Shown here: piece after piece, positions 1 to 4,144 of the stretch
Position numbering within the stretch: the stretch's first letter is position 1
Layout: every line of letters starts with the position of its first letter
DNA from: Candidatus Vogelbacteria bacterium
GTDB lineage: Bacteria > Patescibacteriota > Minisyncoccia > Phycocordibacterales > JACRKE01
Direction: 5' to 3'
DNA length: 25,807 bases
Assembly: GCA_016215335.1 (NCBI GenBank)
Contig: JACRKE010000031.1
Span: 1-25,807 of the forward strand
Program-made: the position numbers and the translations under genes
Notes under the pieces: model-generated
What the model was told of the DNA's origin: nothing
The model's database searches: none
What the model saw: the letters and a program-made list of their open reading frames with translations, nothing else

Positions 1-64
1 CTTTCATTTGTGTTAGTGTAAACCGATTCTCGTTTCTTTCGTGTGTTGTGTGTGATGTGACGAT

Positions 65-86
65 TCAAAAACTCAGACGGCTGAGA
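65..86 (-). terminator. Rho-independent terminator downstream of the MVP gene.
   Basis: On the minus strand the hairpin CTCAG-CCGT-CTGAG is followed by TTTTTG, about 50 nt after the MVP stop at 133. Confidence 0.4.
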
Positions 87-132
87 GATTTTAGTGATGG
101 CCGCAAAACCGACGGAAAATTAGTTTCGTAAT

Positions 133-2544
133 TCACAGCTTGAAGGCCTCGACTTGAGCCAGCAGTTCCTTCAGCTTCTCGTCGAGGGCCTCACGAGCTT
201 CACTGCTTGACTGTTCGAACTCGAGCTTGCGCTGTTCGAGCTCTGCCGTCGATGTGCGCTCCCTCTCCTTGATCCTGGCTTCGGTCAGCACGTATTCCTG
301 CTTGACCTCTTCCAGTTTCTTGGTGAGTGAGAGTAACGTGCGAGCAGCCATCGTTTCGATCTTGTCGATCTCGAGCTCTTGCTGCTTACCGAGTTCAGAC
401 ATTGCCCGGTCGATTCCAGCTTGCTTTGCCTGCGACGATGCAGTTGCTTGTTCCTCGTCGAGGCGAAGCTTCGCCATATTGGTCTCATGACCGAGAAGCA
501 TTTGCTCTCTCGTCACTGCGGCCAAACGCTTGTCAACGTCGAGCGTGCGTTCATTCTGGGCAACATCGAGTGCTTGCTTCACTGCGGAGAGTTGGTTCTG
601 AGCCAGCATTGCCTTTACGTTCTGGTCCACCAGTTCGACGCCGAGCACTTCGACGTCGTAGACGTGAGCATTGCACTCTTTGAAGGTGAGCCCTGGACGA
701 TCGCCTTGTTCGGGCCTCACGCCAAGTATCGTGTCGCGTGTAATGCCCACGTGATGCTTGATGAACTCCTCGACGCCGACTTCACGCGCTGCATTCTTCA
801 CAAGCGAGCGAATTCGATCGCAGAGCAACTTCACGTAGTTGTCGACCGCGAACCATTGTGCTGGATCTTTGCCAACGAAGTCGACGCGGTACGACAGTTT
901 GAGCTTGAGCTCCACTAGGTCGGCCGTTTCGGCCAAGATGACGTCACCTACCTGGTTGTTGCGAACCTGGAGGTACACCGTCTCCTGGATGTTGTCTGTG
1001 GTCTTCGGCTTGCCAGTCGAAAGATGGACCACCTGCGGAACCTCGTCGTACTCAAGGAGAACTGTCTGGGGGCCGACGATTACGCGGTTACCGCCAGACT
1101 GGCGGAACAGGTGTACTGCGTAGCCGTTCCAGACGTTCACTGCCACGGCACCCTGGAATCGTGTGTCGAGGGTGATGGTCCGGGGCGGGGTGAACGTAGT
1201 GTTCCGGTCGAAGTCGTCACCGACGCCCTTCGCGGAACGGGCAACAATGGTTGAGGCTGGATCCCCGGTGAAAGCCGAGAGACGTCTGACAGTGGACTCG
1301 TCAACACGCTCGCCGGGCTTGTGGCCCTGCTGGCGGAGCTGACGGTTGTAGTCGAGAGCCTCTGTGTTTTTGGGGAAAAGCAGGGTGACGAGGCTGTCCG
1401 AAAGTGTTCTGCGAACGTTGACCTCTTCGATCGGGTTCGCGAGGAAAGCCCTCGGCCCGACCACGAGATCGACGCTGCCACTGCCCTTCTTGTAGACGTA
1501 CCTACCTTCACCCTCGGGGATGGCAACCGAGTAGTGGATCTGCTCGTCCCCGTACTTCACGACAGCGTGTTCTTCGCGGGGGAAGTAGATCCGTTGCACG
1601 TGACCGGTGAGGAAGATTTCCTCGCCGACCTTGTGCTGGACGCCATCCTCGTCGACGTAGTCGGCAATGACCTTCAGGTGGATACCCATGTCGTCGTTCA
1701 ACTCGACGGCCCTGAACTTGCGCCTGCCTTCACGCTCTACGAAGGTCTCGGTCGGGGTGGGGAAGACGACCGCGGGGCCACGCACGTTACGCTTCTCTCC
1801 ACTCTCGTCAAGCAGACTGCAGTAGTCGAGACGTTCGAGCGTGACAGCGTCACGCACGTACTCCTTCACCTTCTCATCGGGCACCACTTCGATGCCGGTC
1901 GGCGGGATGAAGAATGAGATGGTCTCACCGGTGATGATGATGATGATCTGACCGATGGTGAGTTTCTCGGGGTCTACACCGAAGGCGAATGCCTTGTTCG
2001 CGCTGTCGACAGTCTTGTCGCCCTCGACCTGTCCGTCCCCGATGGGTTTCAGGGGCTGGATGGCGAGCTCGGCAAGGATCTCCTTCCAGTTATTCTTAGC
2101 TTCGGTGACGTCGTTCATCCGGGCCACCACGTACTGGTTGGTCTTGAGGCGGTGACCCGGAACGACCTGGGCCTCCTGGCCTGGCCAGAGCGGGAACGAT
2201 GCCGGACCGCGGATGTTGATCTTCCGACCGATGGCGAGTTTCGCCATGTTGTTCGAGCCCATGCCAGGGTGTTCGCTTGACTTCTCCGTCGCCGGGTTGG
2301 TGAGGACGATGTAGTCGCCTTGCATGGCGACGGGGAACTGCTGAATCGCTCGTCCGAGGTCGCCTTGCTCGAATCGGCTCGTGGCCGAATCGTAGACGAC
2401 CGGGATATCCGTGTTCGCGAGACTCGTCTTATACGGTCCCGCGTACACGAGGACGTGACCCTTGGTCGCGTCCTGAATGAGTGCGTATTGGTTGCCGGCG
2501 AGTACGAGATCTCGTTCTCGCCCTTCCATGCGTTCTGCTACCAT
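133..2544 (-). CDS. Major vault protein (MVP) homolog: N-terminal vault repeats, shoulder domain, C-terminal cap-helix coiled coil.
   Basis: The 803-aa ORF aligns along its length with eukaryotic MVP. N-terminus: 'LVLAGNQYALIQDATKGHVLVYAGPYKTSL' against MVP '[28 protein letters not shown]', and 'SFPLWPGQE' against 'PFPLYPGE'. Shoulder: 'ETADLVELKLKLSYRVDFVGKDPAQWFAVDNYVKLLCDRIRSLVKNAAREVGVEEFIKHHVGITR' against MVP '[71 protein letters not shown]'. The C-terminal ~140 aa are E/K/L/Q/A-rich heptad-like, matching the cap-helix. The start is ATG at 2544-2542 with GGAG about 10 nt upstream. GC is roughly 60%. Confidence 0.85.
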   Translation of the reverse strand: MVAERMEGRERDLVLAGNQYALIQDATKGHVLVYAGPYKTSLANTDIPVVYDSATSRFEQGDLGRAIQQFPVAMQGDYIVLTNPATEKSSEHPGMGSNNMAKLAIGRKINIRGPASFPLWPGQEAQVVPGHRLKTNQYVVARMNDVTEAKNNWKEILAELAIQPLKPIGDGQVEGDKTVDSANKAFAFGVDPEKLTIGQIIIIITGETISFFIPPTGIEVVPDEKVKEYVRDAVTLERLDYCSLLDESGEKRNVRGPAVVFPTPTETFVEREGRRKFRAVELNDDMGIHLKVIADYVDEDGVQHKVGEEIFLTGHVQRIYFPREEHAVVKYGDEQIHYSVAIPEGEGRYVYKKGSGSVDLVVGPRAFLANPIEEVNVRRTLSDSLVTLLFPKNTEALDYNRQLRQQGHKPGERVDESTVRRLSAFTGDPASTIVARSAKGVGDDFDRNTTFTPPRTITLDTRFQGAVAVNVWNGYAVHLFRQSGGNRVIVGPQTVLLEYDEVPQVVHLSTGKPKTTDNIQETVYLQVRNNQVGDVILAETADLVELKLKLSYRVDFVGKDPAQWFAVDNYVKLLCDRIRSLVKNAAREVGVEEFIKHHVGITRDTILGVRPEQGDRPGLTFKECNAHVYDVEVLGVELVDQNVKAMLAQNQLSAVKQALDVAQNERTLDVDKRLAAVTREQMLLGHETNMAKLRLDEEQATASSQAKQAGIDRAMSELGKQQELEIDKIETMAARTLLSLTKKLEEVKQEYVLTEARIKERERTSTAELEQRKLEFEQSSSEAREALDEKLKELLAQVEAFKL

Positions 2545-2618
2545 TGCTGTCTGTCTCCTTGCGCACTATGCGCGTTACCGTAGTTGATTGCTTGCCCTGA
2601 ACTGGGCGTTGTCTAACT

Positions 2619-2637
2619 ACAGACTCTTCGAGTCTGT
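2619..2637. promoter_or_regulatory. Near-perfect 19-bp palindrome (ACAGACTC-ttc-GAGTCTGT) in the divergent intergenic region; candidate operator.
   Basis: It is read directly from the sequence. It lies in the 289-bp AT-richer spacer between the divergently transcribed MVP gene and the acidic-protein gene. A TTGACA hexamer at about 2727 is a possible -35 for the plus-strand gene. Confidence 0.3.
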
Positions 2638-3859: not shown

Positions 3860-3884
3860 TCGGGTAGTAGAACAGAAGTCAATT

Positions 3885-3929
3885 CCCGCCGTGGGCCCCA
3901 AGTGGCCCACGGCGGTTTCCTATTTTGTG
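3885..3929 (+). terminator. Rho-independent terminator.
   Basis: A 12-bp GC-rich stem (CCGCCGTGGGCC / GGCCCACGGCGG) with a 6-nt loop is followed by TTTCCTATTTTG, immediately after the stop of the 2834..3859 CDS. Confidence 0.6.
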
Positions 3930-3968
3930 AAAAATTTTTAGAACGAAATATTTTGGACAAAAATGCAG

Positions 3969-4006
3969 GCCCCGCCGGAGGCGGGGCAGAGGAGGCTCTG
4001 GTTTTT
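3969..4006. terminator. Bidirectional GC-rich hairpin terminator at the compositional boundary.
   Basis: GCCCCGCC-GGA-GGCGGGGC is followed on the plus strand by a second small hairpin (CAGAG-gagg-CTCTG) and GTTTTT. On the minus strand the same hairpin is followed by CTGCATTTTTG. It can serve the plus-strand acidic-protein gene and the minus-strand 4145..4882 gene. Confidence 0.5.
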
Positions 4007-4144
4007 CACACTCATCACCTGCTCAAGCTGATTTCTATGAGTCGGGTAGTTGCGAGCGTCCTATTCTCTGAATGGCGAGCAGTGCCCATACAAAATGGAG
4101 AGCCATTATAATTTCAAAAAAAGTTATGAATTTATTGCGATAAA

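Follow-up and report, generated by a model that had tools for sequence, protein, structure and literature searches.

Major vault protein (MVP) makes up the shell of eukaryotic vault particles, and what vaults do has long been an open question in the cell biology of eukaryotes. In the eukaryotic vault, MVP binds the lumenal proteins PARP4 (via its MINT domain) and TEP1. For bacterial homologues of MVP, the descriptions so far are in silico only (Daly et al. 2013, PMC3762200; Sokolskyi 2019, bioRxiv 10.1101/872010). The earlier reports cover Myxococcales, Cytophagales, cyanobacteria and two gut phages (PMC3762200; bioRxiv 10.1101/872010; 10.1101/2023.11.10.566534), the two phage MVPs being those of bioRxiv 10.1101/2023.11.10.566534. 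Horizontal transfer in Patescibacteria, the bacteria of the Candidate Phyla Radiation (CPR), has been documented in general (PMC12455944). Here we analyze a stretch of 25,807 nucleotides (the whole of contig JACRKE010000031.1, hereafter the window) from a metagenome-assembled genome (MAG) of 'Ca. Vogelbacteria', an ultra-small bacterium from groundwater. Its left end carries a gene for an MVP-like protein and, divergent from it, a gene for an acidic, all-helical protein. We think it probable that 133-3915 is a laterally acquired two-gene cassette in a Parcubacteria-type chromosome. Neither the foreign composition nor the acidic partner of MVP appears in bioRxiv 10.1101/872010, in 10.1101/2023.11.10.566534 or in a full-text literature search, and no paper among the top-ranked full-text matches mentions MVP together with Patescibacteria or CPR.

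Base composition changes abruptly near the left end of the window. GC content is 55.5% in 1-3900 against 43.2% in 4000-25807, and in a single-change-point likelihood scan the best position for the step is 3915, for which the gain is 101.6 nats. As a control, the best change point within the right-hand 21.8 kb alone gains merely 8.9 nats. The GC content at third codon positions (GC3) is 0.74 in the MVP-like gene and 0.61 in the acidic gene, compared with 0.33-0.58 in the 18 right-hand genes, 17 of which fall in 0.33-0.50. The left block prefers the codons ATC, CTC, AAG, GAG, CGC/CGT and GGC, and the host prefers ATT/ATA, AAA, GAA and AGA. Codon usage of the two left genes correlates with that of the right-hand genes at r = 0.26 and 0.49, against 0.56-0.88 among the right-hand genes themselves. 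The Karlin dinucleotide distance (delta*) from the rest of the window is 173 for the left block and 29-71 for 11 equal-sized control segments wholly outside the block, although in a block with ~90% coding sequence this signature and codon usage are not independent. The GC-normalised tetranucleotide correlation is 0.39 for the left block and 0.61-0.80 in the control segments. The block is a compositional outlier even after the plain effect of GC has been removed.

Ribosome-binding sites provide a measure that, unlike GC3, delta*, tetranucleotides and codons, falls outside coding sequence. AAGGAG-type sites stand upstream of both left genes, 10 nt 5' of the ATG in the case of the MVP-like gene, with anti-Shine-Dalgarno (SD) duplexes of -8.3 and -15.2 kcal/mol. 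The duplexes of 17 of the 18 right-hand genes lie between -6.1 and +2.9, with frr (-8.3) as the exception, a pattern which suggests that translation in the host may start largely without SD pairing. The original prediction for this DNA had placed a step from ~58% to ~42% GC at 3.9-4.0 kb and had seen codon usage and SD strength shift with it. These figures are close to ours (the MVP-like gene itself has 58.5% GC). Both shifts are borne out, since the left genes lie outside the resident range in GC3 and codon correlation and have AAGGAG sites, whereas 17 of 18 right-hand genes pair weakly or not at all with the anti-SD. The tetranucleotide and codon profiling that it had proposed as a check sets the left block apart as well.

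The step falls at a junction between two convergent genes (Table 1). A hairpin at 3886-3915 begins 27 nt past the stop of the acidic gene at 3859, has its T-tract on the plus strand and, at the 3' end of its stem, coincides with the change point. The 66-nt fold around it has a free energy of -32.3 kcal/mol (z = -6.45), and none of 200 shuffled sequences was as stable. A second hairpin, at 3969-3987, lies 158 nt beyond the stop of the resident gene at 4145 and has its T-tract on the minus strand; the 76-nt minus-strand fold around it reaches -24.6 kcal/mol (z = -2.2). Both are predicted terminators, judged by a stem-loop and T-tract after a stop codon, and a weaker plus-strand candidate at 3982-4000, which overlaps the second hairpin, could serve as a back-up. 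The spacer between the two hairpins is AT-rich and host-like. Because each T-tract is on its own strand, the hairpins are best read as convergent terminators of two tail-to-tail genes. The two strong GC-rich hairpins that had been predicted here both exist, but they stand face to face and not in tandem as had been proposed. Since the cassette is tail-to-tail with the resident gene and each has its own terminator, the compositional step falls in the short AT-rich spacer.

Table 1. Features of the left part of the window and its surroundings, followed by the pairs of acidic-family and MVP-like genes. Terminators and genes are predictions; positions refer to the window unless a comparison locus is named.
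Feature	Location	Strand	Description
Weak terminator-like hairpin	72-85	-	5-bp stem, tail TTTTTGAATC, 48 nt 3' of the MVP-like stop
MVP-like gene	133-2544	-	803 aa, GC 58.5%, GC3 0.74
Divergent intergenic region	2545-2833		289 nt, GC 0.45, back-to-back promoter-like sites
Acidic all-helical protein gene	2834-3859	+	GTG at 2834, 341 aa; alternative ATG at 2864 gives 331 aa; GC 53.4%, GC3 0.61
Predicted intrinsic terminator of acidic gene	3886-3915	+	12-bp stem, 11 G-C pairs, 6-nt loop, tail TTTCCTATTT
Predicted intrinsic terminator of resident gene 4145-4882	3969-3987	-	8-bp all-G-C stem, 3-nt loop, tail CTGCATTTTT
Leftmost gene of resident composition	4145-4882	-	245 aa, signal-peptide-like N-terminus, repetitive; GC3 0.39, codon r 0.75
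Secreted-looking protein gene	5292-6914	+	540 aa, several 'GPGGCKG..C..(Y/F)C' cysteine-rich repeats, long charged Arg/Glu/Pro-rich tail
tRNA-Asn(GTT)	~9356-9727	-	anticodon loop split by a 297-nt group I intron
Acidic + MVP pair	window		divergent orientation
Acidic + MVP pair	L007 (Paceibacterota)		acidic gene upstream, same strand
Acidic + MVP pair	L015 (Saccharibacteria)		acidic gene downstream, same strand
Acidic + MVP pair	L095		acidic gene upstream, same strand, among nusA, yidC, groES
Acidic + MVP pair	L094		acidic gene upstream; MVP gene cut by contig end

The junction is continuous in a second assembly. The Logan contig L001 (SRR12113407, 8273 bp; L-numbers designate the comparison loci and contigs of this analysis) corresponds to window positions 112-8387 at 99.95% identity and runs unbroken through the junction, with 3.8 kb on one side of it and 4.4 kb on the other. 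Its gene order is that of the window (CreD, the 540-aa, 76-aa and 245-aa proteins, the acidic protein and the MVP-like protein), and the 245-aa sequence is identical. The two contigs differ at two places only, by 3 nt in a (GAT)n run at 1932-1934 and by a single-nucleotide polymorphism at 2118. Both differences are in the MVP gene and 5.8 kb of neighbouring DNA is identical, which suggests population-level variation in the cassette. We found no repeat common to both sides of the junction that would be able to seed a false join. An unbranched path over the junction from a second assembler is strong, though not final, evidence that the junction is real. The (GAT)n run itself covers 1932-1946, and its change in length gives five or four isoleucines.

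The DNA beyond the MVP-like gene is short. GC is 0.40 in 1-132, and the outermost 71 nt, to the contig end, are TG-rich with ~40% GC. A TG-rich low-complexity stretch lies at 39-57. Both assemblies end within ~130 nt 3' of the MVP-like stop, the MAG contig at 1 and L001 at 112. This shared stop may be due to a repeat, a strain-variable site or a drop in coverage just past the cassette. The exact 51-mer of window 96-146, used for leftward extension, had no match in contigs of JGI metagenomes.

On the other side of the junction, the DNA is genuine Parcubacteria/CPR DNA, because the closest relatives of its CreD protein (69-73% identical) are labelled Parcubacteria or Paceibacterota and its dinucleotide signature matches the contigs that carry these relatives (delta* 32-47). 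Against the same contigs, the left block has a delta* of 147-157.

The product of the first left gene, which is a hypothetical protein in the NCBI record of the MAG (HZA95_03025), is by its domain matches a bacterial homologue of eukaryotic MVP. It matches PF11978 (MVP_shoulder) with 78.2 bits (cut-off 25) over residues 530-640, or profile positions 3-118 of 118, and PF17795 (Vault_3) with 39.8 bits (cut-off 28.8) over residues 475-520, where one vault repeat is detected. Residues 475-800, which take in the C-terminal cap-helix region that adjoins the shoulder, align to residues 466-792 of rat MVP and 471-797 of human MVP (phmmer, E ~1e-13). A sequence search of the PDB returned only chains named 'Major vault protein', among them 4hl8, 4v60, 2qzv and 6bp7 from rat or human. 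The N-terminal ~470 residues have no match by sequence to eukaryotic MVP or its repeat models, and they are conserved in the alignment of bacterial homologues. Its homologues number more than 5000, and the best match other than itself among 5.8 billion proteins is 48-51% identical. An exact-sequence look-up of the 803-aa protein gave no match, the NCBI and Logan versions differing in starts or variants. PHROG, PADLOC and NCBIfam gave no match either, and the Pfam matches are MVP domains only. In the region between the two left genes, promoter-like sites occur on the minus strand at 2733-2705 (TTGTCA, 17-nt spacer, TATAGT; 10 of 12 matches) and on the plus strand at 2652-2680. These are consensus matches and may act as promoters. 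In a sensitive Rfam scan of 1-4300 for vault-RNA-like or other structured RNA, we obtained sub-threshold chance matches only.

The acidic protein belongs to a small and divergent family. A word-indexed search of the same 5.8 billion proteins found solely its own copy on the Logan contig, and phmmer, run exhaustively over 1.84 billion representatives, gave 17 members including the query, the other 16 being 15-30% identical to it. It has no match in Pfam, PHROG, PADLOC or NCBIfam. An AlphaFold2 (AF2) model built from the 17-sequence alignment has helices throughout and is of low confidence (predicted local distance difference test, pLDDT, 56; predicted template modelling score, pTM, 0.38). Genes of this family adjoin MVP-like genes in five of eight distinct contexts and in three orientations (Table 1), so far only in contigs that are labelled CPR or have similar housekeeping contexts. 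As in the window, the pairs in L007 and L094 are GC-elevated over their neighbours (in L094, 0.54/0.57 compared with 0.46-0.47 around them). The pairing of the two genes is recurrent but not obligate. A further member of the acidic family is found at 6001-6846 of L093 (JGI 3300072491, a 380-kb contig) among dense small open reading frames (ORFs) of no known function, and this contig looks phage- or plasmid-like.

MVP-like genes with a foreign composition recur in other CPR genomes. An MVP alignment scan of 185,579 species-representative genomes gave at least 443 loci with MVP-like genes. They are spread over many phyla, among them several CPR lineages as well as Myxococcota, Eremiobacterota/Vulcanimicrobiota, Riflebacteria, Bacteroidota and Bacillota. 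At the 73 loci with enough flanking sequence, the GC content of the MVP gene minus that of its flanks has a mean of +0.010 (sd 0.043), and the value for the window is +0.152. The other strong outliers are all from CPR bacteria, namely L006 (Magasanikiibacteriota, +0.196), L080 (Parcubacteria group, +0.102; 55% GC in the islet and 44% outside) and L075 (Saccharibacteria, +0.094). The L006 islet is in the middle of a 328-kb contig, so that both flanks are visible, with ftsH on one side and ordinary CPR genes on the other. Its MVP ORF has a GC3 of 0.89, against 0.33-0.52 in 18 neighbours that include ftsH and a PilB-like secretion ATPase. Its layout is like that of the window, with the MVP ORF, its own 12-bp GC-rich terminator and then the hairpin of the convergent neighbour. 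The closest protein relatives of the window copy, L176 and L178, are in ordinary chromosomal contexts, with a mild GC excess and no partner gene.

The relationships of the CPR copies point in the same direction as their composition. In a neighbour-joining tree, 81 MVP-like proteins sort broadly by phylum, and all CPR copies form a group near the base. Within this group, identity is high across lineages. The copies of L075 (Saccharibacteria) and L080 (Parcubacteria) are 77% identical, those of L010 (Yanofskybacteria) and L018 (Saccharibacteria) 71%, and that of L007 (Paceibacterota) is 62-63% identical to those of L015 and L037 (Saccharibacteria). Because the CPR part of the tree contradicts host taxonomy, it shows a gene that moves between CPR lineages.

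We suggest that the cassette came from an unsampled donor lineage of ~55-60% GC and that it has yet to drift to the ~43% GC of the host. It would have brought its own signals, namely the divergent promoters within 2545-2833, the AAGGAG sites and the GC-rich terminator at 3886-3915. Because no mobility gene or repeat is visible, integration was probably by DNA uptake and illegitimate recombination. Non-functional donor DNA would then have been lost in a streamlined genome, and this would also account for the ORF-tight islet of L006. The acidic partner could be a cargo, a scaffold or an assembly factor of an MVP-based assembly. The genome signature was tried as a guide to the donor. The nearest signatures are those of high-GC Wallbacteria and Myxococcota loci (delta* 74-97), which is not close enough for a 3.8-kb coding segment.

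Several observations weigh against lateral acquisition or limit what can be said of it. We can name no donor, since the nearest MVP homologue is 48-51% identical and the window copy falls within no high-GC clade that has been sampled. It is the longest branch of the tree, with 43-48% identity to all other proteins there. The acquisition had been called recent, which, with the nearest homologue among 5.8 billion proteins so distant, is a relative term that has composition as its basis. As had been predicted, scans of the window found no integrase, tRNA or direct repeats flanking the junction. No transposase, adjacent tRNA or flanking repeat was found around the block, where the left flank is limited to 132 nt; near it there are short imperfect matches only, none of them bracketing it. 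Neither of its two genes is a recombinase by Pfam, PHROG, PADLOC or NCBIfam. As the contig ends at this block, an insertion between resident sequences could be seen from the right side only. The nearest relatives of the host (CreD ~72% identical) have no synteny on the junction side and therefore provide no empty site. No MVP gene lies within 5-10 kb in the nearest CreD relatives (69-73%), whose junction-side synteny is lost. L001 may stem from the same reads as the MAG and would then test the assembler, not the sample. In L006 (9850-12650), the ORF alone is foreign in composition, and the upstream promoter and ribosome-binding-site region as well as the downstream DNA are AT-rich. Such an ORF-tight islet is not obviously predicted by a simple recent insertion, and strong deletion bias or ORF-restricted selection may explain it. 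For three members of the acidic family (L089/L090, L091/L092 and L093), the surrounding 6 kb contain no MVP gene, and the putative functional link between the two proteins has gene neighbourhood as its basis.

The cassette could also be the right end of a larger mobile element, such as a prophage, an integrative element or a plasmid-derived element, that continues past the contig end with MVP as phage-borne cargo. This is a variant of the transfer explanation, and we regard it as improbable. MVP-like genes are indeed present in the curated huge-phage records LR756500 (462 kb), LR756501 and LR756503 (735 kb), at 41-45% identity, and on 239 IMG/VR contigs, many of them of 100-500 kb, although these contigs may mix true phages with proviruses that have host flanks. 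They add to the two phage MVPs known from bioRxiv 10.1101/2023.11.10.566534. An acidic-family gene is on the 380-kb contig L093, which is full of tiny ORFs, and contigs often break at mobile elements. However, the DNA past the MVP stop (1-132) is already host-like at ~40% GC, and in L006, L080, L094 and L095 the MVP gene or the pair stands alone among housekeeping genes, with no phage genes. The phage and viral copies are 38-47% identical to that of the window and score at most 620 bits against it, compared with 675-732 bits for cellular copies. The acidic partner occurs in none of 80 viral MVP loci and has no PHROG match. A phage origin of the window copy was rejected on these grounds, as viral MVPs are no closer than cellular ones and lack the partner. 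For the MVP family in general, phages are a plausible vehicle.

We give no more credence to a second possibility, that the two genes are long-time residents whose high GC3 and strong ribosome-binding sites are kept by selection, either for very high expression or for the kinetics of co-translational shell assembly. The codons preferred in the block end in C or G (ATC, CTC, AAG, GGC), as optimal codons often do, and the high GC of L006 is strictly confined to the ORF in AT-rich surroundings. The CPR MVPs are grouped at the base of the tree and not within a high-GC clade. The MVP gene is also above its flanks in most low-GC genomes and phages, with a mean excess of 5.6 GC points at 78 viral loci. 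But in low-GC genomes the MVP gene usually exceeds its flanks by 2-6 points and not by 15-20, and the resident genes that relate to expression, namely frr, hpf, the peptidyl-prolyl isomerase (PPIase) gene and mreB, have a GC3 of 0.39-0.47. The dinucleotide signature of the block differs too, with the dependence on codon usage stated above. In several CPR loci, the GC3 of the MVP gene is like that of the host (L018, 0.30; L010, 0.43; L015, 0.51). Since these genes match their hosts, the high GC is not intrinsic to the gene, and codon selection is unlikely.

The original prediction had left the choice between horizontal transfer and an assembly chimera. In a chimera, the assembler would have joined a 3.9-kb left end from a higher-GC organism of the same metagenome to this contig. 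Composition, ribosome-binding sites, the islets of other CPR genomes and the incongruent tree argue for transfer, and the passage of L001 across the junction argues against the chimera. The contig terminates with this block, its signature is nearer to high-GC genomes (delta* 74-97) than to CPR ones (147-157), and the common stop of the two assemblies within ~130 nt past the MVP gene marks a region that is hard to assemble. Yet the separately built L001 crosses the junction without a break, its two sides have no repeat in common, and the layout, in which both convergent genes are complete and have terminators of their own, is biologically coherent. Like islets lie deep in long CPR contigs (L006, at ~130-152 kb of 328 kb; L080), where an artefact of joining ends is impossible, and the acidic family has so far been found beside MVP-like genes only in CPR-labelled contigs or similar housekeeping contexts. 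A chimera is therefore the least probable of the explanations considered here.

With lateral acquisition of the cassette as the preferred explanation, a broader proposal can be made, which we put forward tentatively and hold to be doubtful as yet. The MVP gene and the acidic gene could form a self-contained and horizontally mobile module that circulates among ultra-small CPR bacteria and builds a vault-like assembly with a dedicated lumenal or scaffolding partner. If this is true, such a module would explain the un-ameliorated high-GC islets in several unrelated low-GC CPR genomes, with MVP alone also present in huge phages.

The right-hand part of the window encodes CreD, an alpha/beta hydrolase, a methyltransferase, an amine oxidase, a histidine kinase and a cyclophilin, an EPSP-synthase-family gene and hpf, fmt, def, priA, mreB, holB, frr and rseP. 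The 245-aa and 540-aa proteins next to the junction have no match in any family library and are host-like in composition. In the contexts of four CreD relatives (L082-L088), only the order HTH (helix-turn-helix)-DUF2975-CreD is in common with the window, and the region between CreD and the junction seems to be variable. The proposal that the block borders an accessory region is plausible in the light of the family-less 245-aa and 540-aa genes and of the unconserved gene order beside CreD, but it is unproven for a block at a contig end. In L086 (7159-7830) and L087 (4395-5066), where CreD is 72% identical, an IS200/IS605-type Y1 transposase is directly beside CreD and occupies the place of the 540-aa gene of the window. 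A weak relative of the 540-aa protein (~31% identity) is found in L085, ~7.6 kb from the L085 CreD.

The nearest tRNA had been placed 5.4 kb from the junction, and it is real. It is a tRNA-Asn(GTT) split by a group I intron (Rfam RF00028, 53.9 bits, E = 2.3e-12, at 9403-9702), with a U at the end of exon 1 and a G at the end of the intron. Default ARAGORN and default Rfam missed it, and it was found with sensitive Rfam settings and intron-tolerant ARAGORN. Intron-split tRNA-Asn of such a kind has recently been described for Patescibacteria (PMC13011429). Integration linked to this tRNA was considered and rejected, as at a distance of 5.4 kb it is not an attachment site. Between the split tRNA and the hydrolase gene, a 66-aa ORF (9921-10121, plus strand) has a sub-threshold match to PF04964, Flp/Fap pilin (20.9 bits; cut-off 32.2). 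At the right contig end, a second and smaller rise in GC (~0.53) at 25200-25700 overlaps a 150-aa ORF (25244-25696) whose codon correlation of 0.56 is the least host-like of the right-hand genes. This ORF has no Pfam or NCBIfam match, and a sensitive Rfam scan there found no RNA.

The boundary itself is an ordinary case of lateral transfer if our reading holds, and its cargo is of more interest. Evidence that the boundary is not an artefact mainly helps the annotation of the MAG. What is new is modest, the recurrence of un-ameliorated MVP islets in CPR genomes and the family of acidic partners associated with MVP. MVP-like genes that are exchanged among genome-reduced CPR bacteria, are carried by huge phages and often come with an acidic helical partner provide handles on bacterial vault biology. 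In particular, the two-gene system is amenable to co-expression and imaging of a prokaryotic vault-like assembly and its ligands.

Compared with horizontally acquired islets as described by the Lawrence-Ochman and Karlin criteria, the block shares the abrupt shift in composition, codons and dinucleotides in a discrete accessory segment with its own signals. It differs in having two genes, no integrase, adjacent tRNA or direct repeats, and one boundary hidden by the end of the contig. It also differs from the classical island with an integrase and a tRNA, as it has no integrase, the nearest tRNA is 5.4 kb away and no repeats bracket it, the left flank being 132 nt long. The junction resembles other convergent intrinsic terminators in its two G+C-rich hairpins, with own-strand T-tracts, between convergent stops. 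Its peculiarity is that one hairpin would be imported and the other resident, so that they bracket the compositional step. With the eukaryotic vault and its PARP4 and TEP1, the likeness is in concept only, that of a shell protein and a dedicated accessory protein. We detect no resemblance between the acidic partner and PARP4, TEP1 or a Pfam family, and no Rfam RNA is found in the block. With the MVPs reported earlier from bacteria and phages, the window copy shares a shoulder domain and a vault repeat above Pfam thresholds, a C-terminal helical region and a length of ~800-850 aa, and it is 43-51% identical to hundreds of bacterial homologues. In contrast to these, the MVP-like gene of the window is in a CPR/Patescibacteria host, is compositionally foreign there and is paired with an acidic partner.

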